Sequence record: MG383452
Reading direction: 5' to 3' (one strand)
Length of the DNA: 64,000 bases
Origin: Escherichia phage FEC14
The notes below the pieces were generated by a model, which saw only the letters and a list, made by a program, of their open reading frames with translations, was not told the DNA's origin and did no database searches. Below, one piece after another: positions 6,213 through 64,000 of this stretch (its first letter is position 1; every line of letters begins with the position of its first letter). The position numbers and the translations under genes were made by a program.

Positions 6213-6883
6213 TAAATACTCCCAAAATCACGATTGAGAAACGCAAAAACAGCCTGCTCTACAGTCAGGCCATCGGACTTCATCATACCTGCGGGAACGG
6301 TAGGGAACAAGCCTTTATGCCGTTGACGATGATCATGAACTCTCTCCCACTTCTCGACCACCAGACTTTCATTGAAGTCTGCGCCACCGTTACGCGATTT
6401 GACACGGGCAATACAGGTTTCAAGAGGGGTATCCATAAAGAGGACGACCAATTCACGTGGTGGGCGTGTCAGGCGGGGAATCCAAGAACTCAATAATGTA
6501 GACGGAATGATGCCTTCGAAAATCACATCATATTTCAGGTATTCTGGTTGGTCAGCAATAGACAACGCGAACAACATCTGCTCAGTATCCTTCAGAGAAT
6601 CAACCCCTTTGGACTTAGACTTGTCATATTTACCGACACAGACAATATTGTAAGATGGACAAACCGTGAGCATGATCTTACTGTTATGGGTTACGACATA
6701 CGCCTGAGGATCATTCTCCGCCAAATAAGAGGGCACAGTAGACTTACCACTACCATTGGAGCCTTTAATGTAATACAACTCTCCTCGTGCCGAATATTCC
6801 CCTTCTACAGTAGGTGGTTTGACAAACAAATGCACAGGGCGCTTCAACAGCCCTTTGAGCGAATAAGACATGACATGCTCCAA
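6209..6883 (-). CDS. PNK-type P-loop kinase; candidate 5-hydroxymethyl-deoxyuridine DNA kinase or nucleotide kinase
   Basis: 224 aa; Walker A GSNGSGKST (polynucleotide-kinase style, unlike the RSGKD dNMP kinase), Walker B-like VIFEGII; immediately upstream of hydroxymethylase. Confidence 0.45.
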   Translation of the reverse strand: MEHVMSYSLKGLLKRPVHLFVKPPTVEGEYSARGELYYIKGSNGSGKSTVPSYLAENDPQAYVVTHNSKIMLTVCPSYNIVCVGKYDKSKSKGVDSLKDTEQMLFALSIADQPEYLKYDVIFEGIIPSTLLSSWIPRLTRPPRELVVLFMDTPLETCIARVKSRNGGADFNESLVVEKWERVHDHRQRHKGLFPTVPAGMMKSDGLTVEQAVFAFLNRDFGSIY

Positions 6884-6943
6884 TAAACAAAAGGAGCTGC
6901 TATTATAGCAGCCCCTTTATCTATTGAACGCTTCTGAATTAAA

Positions 6944-12297: not shown

Positions 12298-12540
12298 TTA
12301 AATGAGTTTTTTAGATTTCAATTCACCCTTCAACAACCGAGCATCAGAACATTCAGCTGTTAGCCTTGACAGAAGAGGAGGCGTGATCAATTTTTTGACC
12401 TTTGCTTCTTCGATGTCATACTCTTCACAAACACTGGCCATCGTTTCAAGGATTGATTCCTTGCGTTGGCTTGCTCTCATCAACACCAATTCGGAAAAAG
12501 AATCTGGTGTGAGCACTTGTGCTATTTGTTGATCAGACAT
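12298..12540 (-). CDS. hypothetical protein (80 aa)
   Basis: internal ATG (MSDQQIAQ...) with AAGGGG RBS; ATGTCTGA overlap with upstream stop; longer tracked ORF overlaps neighbour. Confidence 0.4.
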   Translation of the reverse strand: MSDQQIAQVLTPDSFSELVLMRASQRKESILETMASVCEEYDIEEAKVKKLITPPLLSRLTAECSDARLLKGELKSKKLI

Positions 12541-12778
12541 CGATTGTATTCCCCTTCCCTGATTGCTTCTTAATATGACGCAAAACGTCTTTGAAGCCAT
12601 CAGGCGCGGACTGAGGACCACGAACACCAGATACGATCTTTGGTGCTCCGATAATCATTTTTATTTCGCCGCCACATTCAGAACATGGCTCTAATTCAGG
12701 CGTGTGACGTTCAGCACAAGATTTTCGAGCACTAAACGAATTTCCACAACCTGTACAGGCATAATCATAAAACGGCAT
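12533..12778 (-). CDS. FmdB-family zinc-ribbon protein
   Basis: start MPFYDYACTGCG with GGAGG RBS; two CxxC pairs (CTGC ... CSEC). Confidence 0.5.
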   Translation of the reverse strand: MPFYDYACTGCGNSFSARKSCAERHTPELEPCSECGGEIKMIIGAPKIVSGVRGPQSAPDGFKDVLRHIKKQSGKGNTIDV

Positions 12779-22951: not shown

Positions 22952-23035
22952 AGCGATCCTCGGTTTGTGTTTATGCAGGCTGTTATTATACACCGCCTCC
23001 ATGGATTGAAGGCGGTGGGGAAGTTCGTGTGGTAT

Positions 23036-27661: not shown

Positions 27662-27724
27662 TGTTATCTGTATCCTATTGATGACGAATGGGCAAAATTA
27701 TAACCTGACGATGATCCTATTGAG

Positions 27725-36794: not shown

Positions 36795-37910
36795 TTATGC
36801 ATCCAATGTGTTCAAACGTTGTTGGGCAGCATTATAAAATTGTTCTGCAAGTTTGCAAACATTTTCAGGGCGCTGGATATTGTTGGCTGCGCGGATATCA
36901 TTTTTCAAGACTTCTACAGCATCAGTAGCCACCATCTCTTCAGTGACTTCTACCTTCTCGGAAGCAACAGTAATCGTCCGATCGATGAAGTTGTAATCGA
37001 TGCATTTACAGCGCTTCAATGCGTCACAGAACTTTTCATAATGCTTGGCATTGTCACGGTTCTGTACAATCACCTTAACGATTTGCCCTTCAATACCCAA
37101 AACATTGTTTAACCAATCGGGGTCGATCCAATTACCTTCAGTATCAGAAGACATTTGTGTGTAGTCGTATTCCACGAACCGGAACAACGTTTGTTGTTCG
37201 TTGTTGGGGATAAACAATTCCCCGCCATTCATGTCGTCTACATAGAATCCTCGGTTCGTCCCGTCTTTGTGGTCTTCCCAGGTAAGATGATAAGGAGTCC
37301 CAATATACTGAATGTTACCTTCCATCGAACGGGTATGGAAATGTCCGGTATCCACGCGCTCGAATTTCGAAAGGAGCGCCAAGTCGATCTGACCTTTATC
37401 ACATACAGAGGACTGGTACATTTTGAACCCTGCCAACTCCAGATGCGCAAAACAGTACTTGGCGTCTGTATCTTGTATCGCTTTAATGGACGCATCATAG
37501 TTCTCTTTGTTAATCCACGGCAGTAGGAGGGTCTTGACACCTTCAATCATTACTTCAGTTGGTTCGCTGTAATAATGATAAACATCCGGTGCCAATTCAT
37601 TAAGATAAGAAGGCCAGTTAATGCGATTGGACTCTTCTAACGTGATATCATGGTTTCCAACGATGCCATTCCATTTGATACCCGCCTTTCTCAGGGCTGG
37701 CGTTAATTCATCTTTCAACCAATCTTTATCGCGACCATACATGAATTTGCGAACATCAAACGTATCACCAAATTGCCACACTTCTTTAATATCGGCGTCA
37801 ACCAATTCTGGAATAAAATAATTGATGAGATAATTCTTTATGAATTCTCGAACGTAACGGGAACCATTACGGCTCCCGATATGTAAATCGCCAATTTTAG
37901 CAATCGCCAT
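36795..37910 (-). CDS. 47: Mre11/SbcD-like nuclease, T4 gp47-like
   Basis: 371 aa; calcineurin-like phosphoesterase motifs GDLHIG, GDTFD, GNHD; directly upstream of 46 as in T4. Confidence 0.85.
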   Translation of the reverse strand: MAIAKIGDLHIGSRNGSRYVREFIKNYLINYFIPELVDADIKEVWQFGDTFDVRKFMYGRDKDWLKDELTPALRKAGIKWNGIVGNHDITLEESNRINWPSYLNELAPDVYHYYSEPTEVMIEGVKTLLLPWINKENYDASIKAIQDTDAKYCFAHLELAGFKMYQSSVCDKGQIDLALLSKFERVDTGHFHTRSMEGNIQYIGTPYHLTWEDHKDGTNRGFYVDDMNGGELFIPNNEQQTLFRFVEYDYTQMSSDTEGNWIDPDWLNNVLGIEGQIVKVIVQNRDNAKHYEKFCDALKRCKCIDYNFIDRTITVASEKVEVTEEMVATDAVEVLKNDIRAANNIQRPENVCKLAEQFYNAAQQRLNTLDA

Positions 37911-38703
37911 TATTTTGTTGCTCCCGTTCTAATGCTCGTTTCTTTGCTTCTTCCCAATCTGGTTCCATAGAACATATTTCGTCTTCCAGATTGAATTGAG
38001 TAGAGCCGAAGTCATAGTCTGAATTATCTTCGGCGTCGGCGGTAATGGTATTTTCACTCTTTGTGAGACATTGAAGTATACCGCGAGGAATTTTCTTATT
38101 CTTTTCCTCTTCTTTGATGGCGATTTGCTTTTGGCGTTCCTTTTCGCGCTGTGCTTCTTTCTTAGTTTCAAAATTTCCGATACGCTCACGGAAGTCCATT
38201 GTTATACCAGTGCTGTCTACGAATGTCTGTTGCTGGAAGTCTGGGTCATCTGATAATGCAGCGAAACCACCTGCTTCTTCAAATGAACGCAACTTGATAT
38301 AATTGTGTTCTTCTTCACTGGTGAGTTTCTTGGCGAATGAACGATCGGCGCACATCGTTACCCAAGAGAAGAAATTGATTTTTCCTTTCTTGCCGATATG
38401 ACTGACGTCAAATGTATGGAGGTAACGAAGAATGTTAACAACGGCCTCACTGACCATGTCTTCGCGGTATGGATAATCACGATAGTTGTAGCGCATACTC
38501 ATGTTCTTAATAATCATCTGAACATTCATGGCCACATAATTGGGGATTCTTGGTAGGGGTGTTCCTTCGGCCAAAGCCTTTTTGCGAGCCGGAATCCAAT
38601 CTCTCAATATTCCAACAACACGGTCATTATCTTCGTCTGTGAAATATTTGGTGACGTTATCACCCCTGTCTACAAAATTCATACCCATCGTGATAATCCT
38701 CAA
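37897..38703 (-). CDS. 55: putative late-transcription sigma factor, gp55-like
   Basis: 268 aa; region ...NVQMIIKNMSMRYNYRDYPYREDMVSEAVVNILRYLHTFD... resembles T4 gp55 core; 55-47-46 synteny; long acidic C-terminal extension. Confidence 0.45.
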   Translation of the reverse strand: MRIITMGMNFVDRGDNVTKYFTDEDNDRVVGILRDWIPARKKALAEGTPLPRIPNYVAMNVQMIIKNMSMRYNYRDYPYREDMVSEAVVNILRYLHTFDVSHIGKKGKINFFSWVTMCADRSFAKKLTSEEEHNYIKLRSFEEAGGFAALSDDPDFQQQTFVDSTGITMDFRERIGNFETKKEAQREKERQKQIAIKEEEKNKKIPRGILQCLTKSENTITADAEDNSDYDFGSTQFNLEDEICSMEPDWEEAKKRALEREQQNNGDC

Positions 38704-43570: not shown

Positions 43571-43889
43571 GGGGTTCTCCCTGAGACAGTATGGTTTTCA
43601 TCTGTTCACGCGTGATAATTGTTTCAACAAGATTCTCGTCAATCATCATTTCGTTTAACAGTTCACAACCCAGCACGTGTGGTCGCGCCATATACGGCAT
43701 CGTGTTGAGTTTTTCTTCTATGTCAAGAACGCGCTTGACAGTCAGACCCATAGAAGAAAAGGGAACAGGATAAAAGAATGAAATGATCTGATTATCCATC
43801 CCGTTTGAAAATCTTACCAACAATACATCACACCATACGCCGGACATATTACACCTCCAGACGGTTACAATGAGAAAGCGCGTTATCAA
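43560..43889 (-). CDS. hypothetical protein (109 aa)
   Basis: ORF track. Confidence 0.4.
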   Translation of the reverse strand: MITRFLIVTVWRCNMSGVWCDVLLVRFSNGMDNQIISFFYPVPFSSMGLTVKRVLDIEEKLNTMPYMARPHVLGCELLNEMMIDENLVETIITREQMKTILSQGEPHVE

Positions 43890-44538
43890 TCTGTTCCCGA
43901 GACAGATATTCCAACGGGTTGCGAGAATACGCGTCTAACAGCAGCAGTTGGAGCACAGCGCGATTACGAGTTTCACTCTCCATCATGATACCGTTCATAT
44001 GTGGTGAACGGGCTGTCCATACAACATACTGACCTAAATCGTCGTTGGCAGTCAGGCTAATGCGAAACTGATTACACAATTTGTCGATTAACGCATAATC
44101 ATATGTGAACGTCCCTTCAGTTTTCCAGCTTGATTTCTTCACCTGAAGAGCTTCACCACGAGTTCTGAATTCTAACGTCACTCCATGAGTTTCATTGTCG
44201 AAATGAACAACTCTCTGAGTTTCATTTTTCAGAGTCCGGTTCATATTATGTACGAAGAAACGGGCGTCGATCTCCCTATTGCTCATGGAATTAAAATCGA
44301 TCGGCCAAAAACGAGCGCGCATAATCGCGCCTTCTGGCAATACAATTAGTCCATTTTCACGGGAGACATAGCAAAGACGTTTAACTGCAGGGTCAGGATG
44401 TTCCACACAATAAACGGAAATTCCAGTGGGAAGGATAGCGTGGGCGACAACACCAGATCTTTCAAAATATAAATTACCCTGGTCAGCCCCGATGATAATA
44501 CGGCTCTTGTTGTTCATAATACGGCTCTTGTTGTTCAT
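43849..44538 (-). CDS. hypothetical protein (229 aa) with duplicated start region
   Basis: ORF track; N-terminus MNNKSRI-MNNKSRI encoded by a perfect tandem 21-bp duplication. Confidence 0.45.
   Translation of the reverse strand: MNNKSRIMNNKSRIIIGADQGNLYFERSGVVAHAILPTGISVYCVEHPDPAVKRLCYVSRENGLIVLPEGAIMRARFWPIDFNSMSNREIDARFFVHNMNRTLKNETQRVVHFDNETHGVTLEFRTRGEALQVKKSSWKTEGTFTYDYALIDKLCNQFRISLTANDDLGQYVVWTARSPHMNGIMMESETRNRAVLQLLLLDAYSRNPLEYLSREQIDNALSHCNRLEV
44497..44538 (-). repeat. perfect tandem duplication, 21 bp x 2 (AATACGGCTCTTGTTGTTCAT), spanning a start codon
   Basis: seen directly at 44497-44517 and 44518-44538. Confidence 0.8.
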
Positions 44539-44595
44539 AATATAGATCTCTCAAATAAAAGGCGGTTTAATAATAACCGCCCTAATGTTATTGAA

Positions 44596-45390
44596 TTATT
44601 TTATATCACCGACATACATGTTCAAACTTTCATCCCATTCTAAACGAACACGAATAGTGCCAGAATCGTTTGGGAAAGACAATTTGTCGCACATATGACG
44701 ATTTGCATATGTTCCGCTCTTATTAACAGGATAATCTTTACCTTCACCGATTGCGAATCGTTTGAAGTTCCGACTCACCATCATATTGATGTTAGGCCAC
44801 TGCAATTGTTCCCGTAGGGTTTTGCACAATATAATCTTCCCATTAGACCGGAAAGACACGAATAAATCATTTGGTGAAGAAAATCGCCTTTCTTGCGGGC
44901 ATAATTGCCTGATTGAAATAAATTCAGATTCTTCTTTATTCTCAACTGGAGACTTCACGGGTTCTTCTTTTCGTTTTTCTGCATATTGCTCAACAGCCTT
45001 TTGGCTGACAGGCGGCAGATCAATAGAAGGGGAGATGACTGCGGGCTTAACGACTGGTGAAGTACGAGCAGCAACAAGTTTTTCCTGAGCTTCCAGAATT
45101 CTCTCTTGGCGAGATTTTGGTCGAGTATCAACCTTGGAGCTGAAATCACAAACCGTAACCCAATCACCCTGATCATTGCGCTTGGCAACCAGAGTCAGTT
45201 TATAGATGATGCCCTGCAGCTTGCTTTCGCGCATAGTGTCTGCGAACCAGAAAGCACAACCCTGCTCGAACTTTTCAGCGAAGATGACGCGTCCGTCTTC
45301 GTGAATCAGAATGACCTTTGCTTTGTTGGGCGCGAACATCTTATTCTTTTCAATGATCGATTCGGCGATCTTTTTGGTAATAATCATCAC
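44596..45390 (-). CDS. hypothetical protein (264 aa)
   Basis: ORF track. Confidence 0.45.
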   Translation of the reverse strand: MMIITKKIAESIIEKNKMFAPNKAKVILIHEDGRVIFAEKFEQGCAFWFADTMRESKLQGIIYKLTLVAKRNDQGDWVTVCDFSSKVDTRPKSRQERILEAQEKLVAARTSPVVKPAVISPSIDLPPVSQKAVEQYAEKRKEEPVKSPVENKEESEFISIRQLCPQERRFSSPNDLFVSFRSNGKIILCKTLREQLQWPNINMMVSRNFKRFAIGEGKDYPVNKSGTYANRHMCDKLSFPNDSGTIRVRLEWDESLNMYVGDIK

Positions 45391-47341: not shown

Positions 47342-47848
47342 TTATAGGGTAACAAGTGATACGGTAAAAACCATCGTCCCATCTGTTGCCATTTTTCTTG
47401 AAACTGGGAAGACGCGAGGCTGACAGAATATCCATTCTTTCTCCATGGACGCCAAGTCCAGCATATCCATTTCTGATTCATCGCCTTTGTTCACAAATTT
47501 TTCTAGAGAACCAAAGACATTAAGCCCCTCTGGGAGTCCGTTTCGATGTTTATAACAAATGCGGGCAACAGCTTTGGTTCCATACGATTTAGAAAATTGT
47601 TTGGCCACATGCTTCAGTTCGCTGAAACTAAGACAAGAATCCCATGTCTGAAACATGTCTCCTCGTTCAAACATCATCTCCAAACGCGCAACGTCCTCTT
47701 TAGGCAACCCGCGATAAAGTGTGGTCATCTGCGGTTCGCGTAATTCTTGCACCAGACCACGGATGGCAGGGGAAACAGTGCCAGGGCGCATGATGTGGGA
47801 CTTATCATGGACGAGGTAAAATAAATCTTGAATTTGTTGATCGGTCAT
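47342..47848 (-). CDS. hypothetical protein (168 aa)
   Basis: ORF track; starts MTDQ like the downstream 92-aa gene. Confidence 0.45.
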   Translation of the reverse strand: MTDQQIQDLFYLVHDKSHIMRPGTVSPAIRGLVQELREPQMTTLYRGLPKEDVARLEMMFERGDMFQTWDSCLSFSELKHVAKQFSKSYGTKAVARICYKHRNGLPEGLNVFGSLEKFVNKGDESEMDMLDLASMEKEWIFCQPRVFPVSRKMATDGTMVFTVSLVTL

Positions 47849-51381: not shown

Positions 51382-51481
51382 GATTTCCTCGCTTTACAAT
51401 TGGACCATTATACCTTGGCTTGTTAATTGAAACGCCCAGCAATTTGCCGGACGTTATTGATTTTGAAAGACTTTTGAAGAA

Positions 51482-60978: not shown

Positions 60979-62481
60979 TTAGAGCGCCACTTTTTTCATT
61001 TTAACAGGGTGGCGCTCCATAAGATAAAATTTATATCTCTCATGAGAATGCCTGAGAGCATGGTTGTAGGAACCGTTGTAACGCAGGTTGTCTACCAGGT
61101 CCCAGATTCGCGCAACATCCTTAGAGGAATGCTGACGCATCAAACGCCCCAATGTCTGTATAACACGGATATAAGATTTGCTGGGATGGGCCAATATCAG
61201 ATGATGGAGTTTTTTGATAGATACGCCCTGTTGCATAGTACCATATGATGCTAACAGTGTTATATCTTCCCCTTCTTCCATAGCAGCCTGAATCTGTTTA
61301 CGAACTTCTGTCTTGACTTCCCCGTTGATGACGAATACGTTTTTCTTGACTGCCGATAGCATTTCATAAACCAACATCATGTGTGCATCGATACGTTCGA
61401 ACATGACTGCGACGTTCCCTTTCAAAGATAGAGCCATTCGGGCTATCAATTCATTGCGGCGTTCGTTAGCAATGAGGAATTCTATTTCCTTTTGATACTC
61501 AGCACCGTGCATTTCAATACAGTCTGCCATAGGATGTATGACTTCAATCATATTAACATTGATGTCTGCCGCATATCCTAGATCGATTAAATCGCGCGCT
61601 GTAATAATTTTATGATATGCGCCAAAGTGAGCAACGACTTGTAACCCTGCGACCTTTGTATTCGCCAGGGTTCCGGTTACTCCCAAACGTTGATCAGCGT
61701 TAATACAGTTGTTCAAGATGTAAGACAATTTATCTGATTTTGATGTATGTACTTCGTCAACGACGATATCTCCAAATTGATGGAACCACTCTTTGGGTTG
61801 GTTCTGGATACCTTGCCAAGTTGAAATAACTATGGGTTTGAAAATCTCTTTCGTTGCCCCTTCGTATATTGTCTGGACGTTCATCAATGGCTTCCATTCT
61901 GTCCCGTGGCTATATTCTTCGAAGTTGTCATACAACTGAGTCACCAAATGAATGGATGGTACAACAATTAACGTCCTCAGATTACTTTCGAGGGCATCTC
62001 TGCGTTGCCTGTAGTAACGCGCCATGATGTACAAAATAAAGGATTTGCCAGCACTCGTGGCAGCTTCGAGGACACATCTGCTTTGGCGTATTGCTGTGGC
62101 AACAGAATCAAATTGATAATCGCGGACAATCGCTTTTTGATATTGTTTGTTTTCGTCTCGGTACACCGCATTCAATGTATCGATGAACGCATGAATTTCT
62201 TCATCCGGAATGTCTTGAATATATTTTAAGGCCGGATCTAATTTGATGGTGTAACCGTTCATCTTACAGAATTTGAACACCTCAAATAACAGGCCGATGT
62301 CGATAAGCCCAGAACTCTTTGTGAACAACCGCACTACGCCGTCCCATTTACTGAACGGATTCGGTTGGAAATTAGGATCTTCAAATTTGAAGTAATCGTT
62401 GAGTTCTTCACGGATATAATCCTCGGCAAGGATCCGCATTCTAACTTCGTTCACTTTGACTATTTGGATCTCAGACATCAC
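60979..62481 (-). CDS. uvsW: UvsW SF2 DNA/RNA-DNA helicase
   Basis: 500 aa; PTSAGKS-like motif I (EAATSAGKS), DEVH box, WQGIQNQPKEWFHQFG matches T4 UvsW WQTVVKQPKEWFSQFG. Confidence 0.8.
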   Translation of the reverse strand: MMSEIQIVKVNEVRMRILAEDYIREELNDYFKFEDPNFQPNPFSKWDGVVRLFTKSSGLIDIGLLFEVFKFCKMNGYTIKLDPALKYIQDIPDEEIHAFIDTLNAVYRDENKQYQKAIVRDYQFDSVATAIRQSRCVLEAATSAGKSFILYIMARYYRQRRDALESNLRTLIVVPSIHLVTQLYDNFEEYSHGTEWKPLMNVQTIYEGATKEIFKPIVISTWQGIQNQPKEWFHQFGDIVVDEVHTSKSDKLSYILNNCINADQRLGVTGTLANTKVAGLQVVAHFGAYHKIITARDLIDLGYAADINVNMIEVIHPMADCIEMHGAEYQKEIEFLIANERRNELIARMALSLKGNVAVMFERIDAHMMLVYEMLSAVKKNVFVINGEVKTEVRKQIQAAMEEGEDITLLASYGTMQQGVSIKKLHHLILAHPSKSYIRVIQTLGRLMRQHSSKDVARIWDLVDNLRYNGSYNHALRHSHERYKFYLMERHPVKMKKVAL

Positions 62482-62507: not shown

Positions 62508-63254
62508 TTAGCGATCCGCCCAGATTCCTTTCTGTTCTTTACCCATTTTGTGATACAGACGGACACGATCAAACATTTTAGAAATAACGTCTTTGCGATC
62601 GAATTCGATTATGGTGGGAACAAGGGCATTTTCGTTGGATATAATATTGATTAAACGCTCTATCTTGACATTAAACATTTGTTGAAACATGACTGAGTAT
62701 AGACACAATTGAATACTATAATCTTCTATCATGCTTCGAGTTTTTAGGGTGTTGGATGTTTTGAAATCGATTATGCTTGGAATTCCTTCGTAAACCCCGA
62801 TGAGGTCAACACGACCAGCAAGACCCAGGACTTCGCTATATAATGGAATCTCTTGTGCATATATCTTGCTCATTTTGTTAAGGTAGGGGAAAACCTGTTT
62901 GAACATAAACACGTATTCCCCTGCAGCTTCCAGAACTTCCTTCATTGGTCTGTTTTTGAGATACAACTCACAAGCCAAATGAAGTTTTTCCCCACGGTCT
63001 GCGCAACGATGTGTTTCTATATCAGCAGCTTCATGTCCCAACTTGTCCCGCCAGGCTTCTAACCATGTGTGGTCACCAGTACGCCCTAACATGGTCGTCA
63101 CTGAAGTTAGTTTGACTCCAGTGGGGGAAACATAGTGACGACCATTTTCGGTAGTTACGCAAGTCAGTTCCTTAAACGGCAAGGAATATTGCTGAAATGT
63201 GTGATGACGATTTTCAAAGTCATTAAGTTTGCGCAAAGCCTGTAGAGAAACCAT
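62508..63254 (-). CDS. putative PD-(D/E)XK nuclease-like protein
   Basis: ATG 63254 overlapping upstream stop (TAATG); GRVDLIGV ... IIDFKTS D...D-x-K arrangement; tracked ORF begins at upstream TTG. Confidence 0.35.
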   Translation of the reverse strand: MVSLQALRKLNDFENRHHTFQQYSLPFKELTCVTTENGRHYVSPTGVKLTSVTTMLGRTGDHTWLEAWRDKLGHEAADIETHRCADRGEKLHLACELYLKNRPMKEVLEAAGEYVFMFKQVFPYLNKMSKIYAQEIPLYSEVLGLAGRVDLIGVYEGIPSIIDFKTSNTLKTRSMIEDYSIQLCLYSVMFQQMFNVKIERLINIISNENALVPTIIEFDRKDVISKMFDRVRLYHKMGKEQKGIWADR

Positions 63255-63709
63255 TACATCCCATCCAAATATTTTCGCCAATCAATAGCATTCTTCACTT
63301 CATATCCGAGTTTGTTCAAACGATCTAAGCAACTTTCGATGAACTTGACTTTGGCTTTCTGCTCTTGAAGCATGCTAGACAATTCGATATAATCATCATC
63401 TGCTTTTACCCATACGTCTATATCAGATTTCAGGGGGCGAACTTTTAATGGACGTTCAACATAAACGTTGGGTGGCAATTCCCCTGCATAAAATCGGCGT
63501 AAATAGAGATCTATTTGGCGGAATTTGCCAGTTAGATACTCCAGATATCTTCCTTCACGAATATAATGGCGTTGCACAGTCATCCACGAACGACCAATTT
63601 TCAATGACATTTGGTCTAAGTTCATGTCTTCAGGATTTACCGAAATAAGAGGCTCCAATTCTGCCATTATATCTTCGGTTTTCATCGTTTCAAGTTTTGT
63701 TTCGCTCAT
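63254..63709 (-). CDS. hypothetical protein (151 aa)
   Basis: ORF track; preceded by tandem TATAAT-containing repeat. Confidence 0.45.
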   Translation of the reverse strand: MSETKLETMKTEDIMAELEPLISVNPEDMNLDQMSLKIGRSWMTVQRHYIREGRYLEYLTGKFRQIDLYLRRFYAGELPPNVYVERPLKVRPLKSDIDVWVKADDDYIELSSMLQEQKAKVKFIESCLDRLNKLGYEVKNAIDWRKYLDGM

Positions 63710-63731
63710 GATTTATTCCCTGCTGTTTCAA

Positions 63732-63761
63732 CTCTCTGTATTATAACTCTCTGTATTATAA
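63732..63761 (-). repeat. perfect tandem repeat 15 bp x 2 (minus strand TATAATACAGAGAGT), each unit carrying TATAAT
   Basis: plus-strand ACTCTCTGTATTATA at 63732-63746 and 63747-63761, between two minus-strand genes. Confidence 0.7.
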
Positions 63762-63763
63762 CT

Positions 63764-64000
63764 TATTGTTTATCAATTTCGCGGGTGACGCGAGTCGGAG
63801 TCAGTTTCAAATATTTGAACGTGACAGTCGTGACCAGTTGGGGAACCGCAGCATCCACATCCACCAATACGTTGTCCAAAGCTGTGGGACGGGCTTCTTC
63901 CAACAACAATTGTAGACCAACAGGGCGATTCATGTTATTAAGAAGGTCGATGGTGATGTCACGGCTAACAGCTAAATCAGATCCAGCATTGGACGCAATC
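63764..64000 (-). CDS. hypothetical protein, C-terminal fragment (gene start lies beyond window end)
   Basis: open minus-strand frame from window end to TAA at 63766-63764 (...VTFKYLKLTPTRVTREIDKQ). Confidence 0.3.

Follow-up and report, generated by a model that had tools for sequence, protein, structure and literature searches.

The duplicated element upstream of uvsY raises the question of whether two perfect TATAAT hexamers standing in tandem before one phage gene represent a designed arrangement, such as tandem promoters or iterons, or an accident of copying that befell a single element. The stretch of DNA analysed, referred to here as the window, comprises 64,000 nucleotides of Escherichia phage FEC14 (sequence record MG383452), and the repeat was followed from its letters and neighbours to its counterparts in related phages and its probable function.

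The repeat and its gene neighbourhood

The window was identified as Kuttervirus (a ViI-like Salmonella/E. coli myovirus, Ackermannviridae), with 96–98% identity to many sequenced isolates and 96.8–97.7% identity over 25 kb to the closest relative. The repeat lies in the spacer that runs from the stop codon of a gp3-like tail gene to the uvsY ATG (63709), and the features of the locus are as follows.

60979–62478, minus strand: gene for a UvsW-like DNA helicase, the next gene in the same direction, with its own late-type TAAATA box 26 nt upstream
62508–63254, minus strand: gene for a PD-(D/E)XK exonuclease (Pfam PF12705; annotation of relatives)
63254–63709, minus strand: gene for a UvsY-like recombination mediator, 151 aa (Pfam PF11056 UvsY, E=5e-12)
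63717–63721, minus strand: Shine-Dalgarno-like AGGGA, read from the sequence, 7 nt before the uvsY ATG
63730–63732, minus strand: partial third copy of the repeat, GTT (2.3 copies according to TRF), which together with the preceding A forms the AGTT microhomology
63733–63747, minus strand: proximal unit, GTTATAATACAGAGA, at the native distance from the Shine-Dalgarno sequence and ATG
63740–63745, minus strand: proximal TATAAT, a -10-like hexamer 30 nt from the ATG
63748–63762, minus strand: distal unit, GTTATAATACAGAGA, with the native upstream context kept
63755–63760, minus strand: distal TATAAT, a -10-like hexamer
63763–64000, minus strand: 3' part of a gp3-like tail completion/sheath stabilizer gene, cut by the end of the window (ORF listing; annotation of the homologous loci of SeKF_19, CBA120, Vi01 and others)

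Read along the minus strand, GATAAACAA is followed by the gp3-like stop codon TAA (63765–63763), two head-to-tail copies of GTTATAATACAGAGA (63762–63748 and 63747–63733), GTT (63732–63730), GAAACAGCAGGGAATAAATC, the uvsY ATG (63709–63707) and then AGC, with the last A of the stop codon serving as the first base of the repeat array. The bases of the 15-mer outside TATAAT are ACAGAGAG. Tandem Repeats Finder (TRF) delimited the array at 63730–63763, with a period of 15, 2.3 copies, 100% matches and a score of 68. The initial annotation had described a tandem 15-bp repeat on the minus strand, two TATAAT hexamers within it (63760–63755 and 63745–63740) and a position between the stop of the upstream reading frame and ATG 63709, and all three points were confirmed by reading of the sequence, by TRF and by the ORF listing; the coordinates that it gave, 63732–63761, lie inside the same array, but their phase differs by one base from that of the unit used here.

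The period-15 repeat is far beyond chance. An array of 34 nt requires 19 consecutive matches at an offset of 15, for which the estimate is 64000 x 0.25^19, or about 1e-7 per period. A mean of 4.45 perfect two-copy tandems with periods of 7–40 per window was obtained in 100 first-order Markov simulations; the observed list suggests that these are mostly 14-nt cases of period 7, and the two long arrays of the window (34 nt and 48 nt) are distinct from such short period-7 tandems.

A UvsY protein of at least 99% identity occurs in 126 phage records, and every such match listed is 100% identical. The start of the exonuclease gene overlaps the stop of uvsY, and co-transcription of the two genes is therefore probable. 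A terminator-like hairpin was sought in the gp3–uvsY interval and none was found, and a search of positions 63000–64000 against Rfam at E<=1 returned zero matches, so that no known RNA element was detected there. A near-consensus sigma-70 match (TTGAAA-16-TATAAT, 11/12) was also observed at 63693–63666 on the minus strand, inside the opening 15 codons of uvsY; its conservation extends over Kuttervirus but not to Taipeivirus or Agtrevirus and is explained by coding constraint, and the match was set aside as probably a coding by-product.

The conserved box and its probable promoter class

The spacer between gp3 and uvsY was compared across 26 Kuttervirus loci, and its first 28 nt, GTTATAATACAGAGAGTTGAAACAGCAG, are invariant in all of them, including lineages whose flanking genes share only about 82% identity; on this pattern the 15-bp unit appears to be under constraint and functional. 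A TATAAT(A/T)C box located 29–30 nt before the uvsY ATG was observed in five Ackermannviridae lineages, among which the intervening sequence differs, and the boxes with their distances from TATAAT to the start codon are listed below together with that of a further Vibrio phage.

Kuttervirus: GTTATAATAC, 30 nt to the ATG
Taipeivirus: GTTATAATAG, 30 nt to the ATG
Agtrevirus: GGTATAATTC, 29 nt to the ATG
Limestonevirus: AGTATAATTC, 29 nt to the ATG
Vibrio phage 207E48.1 (UvsY 43% identical): CCTATAATACCC, 29 nt to the ATG
Vibrio phage D506: GCTATAATACACCC, about 24 nt, counted to the likelier second ATG

The hexamer keeps a constant distance while the nearby bases drift, and in this it behaves as a -10 promoter element would. 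The TATAAT box is absent from the gp3–uvsY junction in Miltonvirus (Serratia phage Kevin) and Campanilevirus (Vibrio phage YC), in which the two genes either overlap or adjoin with a 9-nt spacer; with no box at such a junction, uvsY would have to be transcribed from further upstream in both genera.

The promoter class of the box was assessed within the window using gene calls transferred from the relative KE28, with the sense-strand zone 8–60 nt upstream of starts making up 3.8% of positions. TATAAT was the most enriched among all 20 hexamers of three A and three T, with 11 of its 50 occurrences in this zone against about 1.9 expected (p=2e-6), and the enrichment of TAAATA was higher still (9/24 in the zone, p=1e-7; TAAATAC 6/9). 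The two sets differ in the genes that they precede, as follows.

TATAAT class, 25–38 nt from starts: primase, SbcC/gp46-like protein, UvsY and several small genes
TAAATA class, often (T/C)(A/T)TAAATAC, 21–33 nt from starts: baseplate hub, gp5-like hub/lysozyme, endolysin, gp2-like end protector, RuvC/gp49-like protein and UvsW-like helicase
TAAATA boxes upstream of starts: 9894(-), 13665(-), 14740(+), 16053(+), 23002(-), 24777(-), 28078(-), 29618(-) and 62478(-)

The genes behind the TAAATA boxes are late genes in T4, and three of these boxes are perfect T4-type TATAAATA; as a set, the TAAATA boxes are candidates for the gp55-dependent late promoters of Kuttervirus. Two consensus sequences, TTCAATAA-N14-TATAAT and CTAAATAcCcc, were reportedly suggested in the Vi01 genome paper and the Viunalikevirus proposal, and they agree with the motifs derived here. 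The phages CBA120, ViI and AG3 possess homologues of gp55, gp33 and gp45, but are devoid of MotA and AsiA, only eight sigma-70-like promoters were found, and the family's promoter signals, early, middle and late alike, were left unidentified (Kutter et al. 2011, PMC3184105). Annotation transferred from KE28 places a gene for a gp55-like late sigma factor at about 37897–38688 and one for a gp33-like late co-activator (late promoter transcriptional regulator) at about 12298–12600, both on the minus strand, and a homologue of RNA polymerase ADP-ribosylase was observed at about 47342–47848.

Both hexamers of the repeat match the sigma-70 -10 sequence TATAAT at six of six positions. On the TATAAT-class matrix the distal copy scores 9.3 bits and the proximal copy 7.6 bits, within the range of the members (4.4–13.3 leave-one-out), while the best score of the late TAAATA matrix upstream of uvsY is 3.7 bits, at a position away from the box, compared with 6.4–13.4 for its nine member sites. 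From these scores the uvsY box is therefore grouped with sigma-70-type -10 elements, in a comparison with small matrices and some circularity, since class membership was defined by the core hexamer itself.

A -35 element was also sought, and a sigma-70 scan requiring both hexamers called neither copy. The hexamers found by hand at a spacing of 17 nt are CGCGAA (distal) and CAATAA (proximal), and the best -35 candidate, TTGATA, lies 10 nt from the distal or 25 nt from the proximal TATAAT and is not usable. The sequence AGT-TATAAT does not form an extended -10 either, as half of the TG is present, with G at -14 only; this G is retained in Agtrevirus (CGG-TATAAT). Agtrevirus and Limestonevirus carry TTGATT or TTGTTC 18 nt upstream of the box and Kuttervirus carries no such sequence, and a -35 is therefore not a conserved requirement. 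The Kuttervirus uvsY element is best described, from its letters, as a putative -10-only promoter with a fully matching TATAAT, a G at -14 and upstream DNA rich in A+T. Kuttervirus DNA contains hypermodified thymidines, which could alter recognition by sigma-70. The MotA box of T4, (a/t)(a/t)TGCTT(t/c)a centred at -30, was looked for as well, and no TGCTT occurs in the upstream sequence CGCGAAATTGATAAACAATAAGT.

Other upstream architectures were observed in the window. At some TATAAT-class sites a T(T/C)CAAT box lies 16–18 nt upstream of TATAAT as a -35 equivalent, and T(T/C)CAAT(A/T)(A/G)-N-TATAAT is found 25–35 nt before starts on the minus strand at 682–709, 6902–6928, 22985–23009, 27697–27723 and 51407–51431; these are phage-specific sigma-70-like -35/-10 pairs, probably of early promoters. 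This architecture, present before about five genes, was tried as a fit for the uvsY box and rejected, as no such -35 equivalent exists at uvsY. The site at 22985–23009 suggests that the true start of the nrdA-like gene lies about 55 nt downstream from its annotated ATG. A terminator-like hairpin at about 6895–6920 (minus strand; GGGGCTGC TATAATA GCAGCTCC TTTT) directly precedes the gene that starts at 6871 and has TATAATA as its loop, which places a -10-like box inside a terminator. A repeated intergenic cassette was observed upstream of the starts at 45387, 47289, 47848, 55320 and 59522 (minus strand), in which a G+C-rich terminator-like hairpin precedes TTTGAA(A/C)(T)GAA(A)GGAA..TA.ATC and the ATG. 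The motif TTGAA[AC] also abuts the uvsY repeat, with weak enrichment (p ~0.008).

The principal competing assignment is that the uvsY box represents a variant late promoter, read by the gp55-like sigma factor with gp33 and the sliding clamp and needing no -35, like the T4 TATAAATA, in which case the duplication would have created two late starts. The gp55-like and gp33-like proteins are indeed encoded by the phage, the architecture is "-10 only", TATAATAC has AATAC in common with the TAAATAC late-type boxes, the Vibrio versions TATAATACCC or TATAATACACCC resemble the C-rich 3' flank of the TAAATA boxes, and the distance from box to ATG is compatible with both classes. However, the box reads TATAATA and not the core TAAATA of TATAAATA, from which it differs at two core positions; the best late-matrix score upstream of uvsY is below that of every member and does not fall at the box; Agtrevirus and Limestonevirus combine TATAATTC with their sigma-70-like TTGATT or TTGTTC; and UvsY is pre-replicative in T4 (PMC2988021). 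The late assignment is accordingly regarded as unlikely, and the box is treated below as a sigma-70-type -10 element.

A duplication private to one genome

Differential spacer lengths were observed between the window and its relatives. The gp3–uvsY spacer is 53 nt long in the window compared with 38 nt in all 26 Kuttervirus loci, and 38 nt were also found in the type phage Vi01 and at all of 10 further places in NCBI and Logan that encode an identical UvsY. BLAST of a 1601-nt query against the phage collection spanned 1586 nt in all matches listed, from 174 near relatives, and a 401-nt query spanned 386 nt in every Kuttervirus match among those listed, of 250 records. With a 71-nt query centred on the repeat, a full-length match in a single piece was found in none of 223 records, the four rows with "full coverage" consisting of two pieces over 56 nt, that is, of one copy. 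No exact match to the duplicated form was found in IMG/VR viral contigs, in JGI metagenome contigs or in GTDB genome contigs, and the single-copy junction is present in 10 IMG/VR contigs. The single-copy sequence of the relatives is TAAGTTATAATACAGAGAGTTGAAAC, relative to which the distal or, equivalently, the proximal unit represents a 15-bp insertion. The comparison of copy number with relatives that had been proposed as a check on the repeat thus gave a uniform answer, with one copy in all those examined and two in this genome only.

The ancestral allele also exposes the probable mechanism. It reads TA-AGTT-ATAATACAGAG-AGTT-GAAAC, in which a 4-bp direct repeat brackets the 15-bp unit; such an AGTT...AGTT bracket, a classical substrate of replication slippage, is what would be expected of an origin by that route. 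Pairwise alignment to KE28 places a 15-nt insertion, AGTTATAATACAGAG, at the locus. Just two indels exceed 3 nt in the 25 kb aligned with KE28, the closest collinear relative (96.8% identity): the 15-bp duplication at uvsY and another perfect tandem duplication, of 21 bp (2.3 copies), at 44495–44542 in the minus-strand ORF 43849..44538. The latter repeats the start codon and first seven codons of a hypothetical protein (MNNKSRI MNNKSRI), is likewise private, with relatives spanning 480 nt versus 501, and is bracketed by ATAATA microhomology. As both duplications occupy tolerable places, one intergenic and one in-frame, they are read as ordinary slippage mutations. Because the relatives examined are all single-copy and no exact match exists in the public collections searched, the uvsY duplication is judged from these comparisons to be a private, recent, strain-specific slippage mutation and not a designed repeat. 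It is the private allele that is new; the type of event, slippage duplication of a promoter element, is already known.

That the duplication is instead an artefact of assembly or sequencing, or a minority variant fixed in the consensus, would agree with the absence of the duplicated form from every collection searched and with the occurrence of a second private perfect duplication in the same genome. It is nevertheless improbable, and more so than a late promoter at uvsY: both duplications carry ancestral microhomology (AGTT and ATAATA), the hallmark of real slippage, and both fall at tolerable sites, one intergenic and one an in-frame 7-codon N-terminal repeat; moreover, perfect tandem copies of 15–21 bp are rarely created by assemblers, and, with about 3% divergence between the window and its nearest relative, private indels are expected.

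Proposed function of the duplicated element and known systems

The reading that we favour, as the probable though by no means certain one, is that an accidental duplication turned a "-10-only" pre-replicative uvsY promoter into two candidate promoters that overlap, 15 bp from each other. The 15-bp unit would represent a -10 element that gives the uvsY–exonuclease(–helicase) genes transcription independent of the late gp3, allowing the uvsY–exonuclease module to be transcribed ahead of late read-through from gp3. Such a -10-only promoter may work alone or with an unnamed phage factor, and its role would be analogous to that of the T4 middle promoter PuvsY. Slippage during replication, between two AGTT sequences 15 bp apart, would then have duplicated the element in this phage only. 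At the usual distance of 7 nt, transcription from the distal box would start at about 63748 (A), with a leader of about 39 nt, and from the proximal box at about 63733 (A), with the native leader of about 24 nt. The two boxes would overlap and compete, not add, because RNA polymerase on one covers the other. The predicted fold of the leader is -3.1 kcal/mol with or without the extra 15 nt, the Shine-Dalgarno sequence is unpaired either way, and no added pairing is predicted from the extra 15 nt. Since these are predicted to be unstructured, with the ribosome-binding site free, uvsY expression is probably preserved or modestly changed, and the effect of the duplication, by this modelling, is probably near neutral. 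The Vi01 GenBank record carries no promoter features and, because a literature search found no transcriptome or transcription start map for any Ackermannviridae phage, promoter activity at the box is something that we infer, along with the sigma factor, the start sites and near-neutrality.

With respect to the initial annotation, which had proposed a duplicated -10 element in the form of tandem promoters, the anatomy holds, as a perfect TATAAT stands at a conserved distance from the ATG and belongs to an enriched class, but the tandem arrangement is not a conserved design and no relative examined has it.

The duplication might also be adaptive, the two -10 boxes raising or retiming expression of UvsY and the exonuclease, for instance under DNA damage or host defence. 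The exact copying of a conserved promoter box and the intact native leader are consistent with this, but the allele is a singleton among hundreds of genomes, overlapping footprints make additive output unlikely, and the second duplication, without obvious benefit in the same genome, means that a neutral background of slippage is sufficient; an adaptive role is thus very unlikely. At a slightly lower probability again stands the speculation that the conserved uvsY promoter is the Ackermannviridae counterpart of T4 ori(uvsY)/oriF, with its transcript priming replication. If this were true, the duplication would have doubled the promoter of an origin and could affect origin firing as well as uvsY expression, and the iteron idea would have a partial basis. 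An unwinding element downstream of the box was considered and rejected, the AT content of 0.60–0.65 being unremarkable for a window whose mean is 0.55 and whose 95th percentile is 0.67. Least probable of all is the other suggestion of the initial annotation, that the repeats are iterons or operator sites for a phage or host protein in a replication origin or repressor control: direct repeats do occur in an AT-rich spacer (73% AT) and the T4 uvsY promoter region doubles as a replication origin (PMC2988021), but there are only two copies, in this genome only, with one copy in every relative examined and as the ancestral state, and no other close intergenic copy in the window; a search of the window with the 15-mer at <=3 mismatches gave 7 extra degenerate matches (2–3 mismatches) versus 1.5 expected, none upstream of a gene and the six within mapped genes all in coding sequence; T4 origins are not known to use iterons; across genera, conservation is limited to the TATAAT hexamer and its set distance from the ATG; and no cognate initiator gene lies nearby, the neighbours being gp3, UvsY and the exonuclease.

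Returning to the duplicated -10-only promoter, the duplication taken alone matters little, as a strain-specific slippage mutation in an intergenic spacer. The natural pair of one-copy and two-copy alleles could nonetheless show whether a bare TATAAT without a -35 initiates on Kuttervirus DNA, and the distal copy, with its native upstream DNA, and the proximal copy, with its native downstream DNA, offer a contrast for the effects of context. Also of modest use are the clean split within the phage, with TATAAT before DNA-metabolism genes and TAAATA before late-type genes, and the conservation of the uvsY box from Salmonella to Vibrio Ackermannviruses. The TATAAT and TAAATA sets represent testable candidate signals, because the promoter signals of the family were left unidentified by Kutter et al. 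2011.

Among known systems, the T4 middle promoters consist of a sigma-70 -10 element and a MotA box, and PuvsY is one such promoter, which also drives a replication origin, while PuvsX is functional with RNA polymerase alone, its perfect -10 and UP elements offsetting a weak -35 (Hinton 2010, PMC2988021). The phage uvsY element resembles PuvsY as a candidate sigma-70 -10-based promoter directly upstream of uvsY, serving a pre-replicative DNA-metabolism gene amid late structural genes, and resembles PuvsX in that a perfect -10 with AT-rich upstream DNA can make up for a poor -35 (PMC2988021). It differs from PuvsY in having no MotA box (TGCTT) at -30, in the lack of MotA and AsiA reported for ViI-like phages (PMC3184105), and in its tandem duplication, which has no T4 counterpart. 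Overlapping or tandem bacterial promoters such as E. coli gal P1/P2 share with the duplicated element the close placement of two -10 sequences (15 bp in the phage), by which polymerases would be mutually exclusive, and alternative starts and leaders for one gene. Classical overlapping promoters are conserved and differentially regulated, whereas the phage boxes are identical copies from a private mutation, with no sign of differential control.

The T4-type late promoter (TATAAATA, served by gp55/gp33/gp45) is comparable in being -10-only and about 30 nt before the start codon, and homologues of gp55 and gp33 are present, but the uvsY box is TATAATA and not (T/C)(A/T)TAAATA, and scores below all members of the late class. 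The iterons of plasmid and phage origins are likewise short direct repeats in AT-rich intergenic spacers; the two copies here are private, their arrangement is not conserved, no initiator is nearby and no further copies occur. The closest parallel is slipped-strand (microhomology-mediated) tandem duplication, with its perfect head-to-tail copies and the single-copy ancestral allele in relatives, together with the AGTT bracket and the second event of the same type elsewhere in the genome; no difference from it was found, and it is the mutational mechanism assigned to the uvsY repeat.
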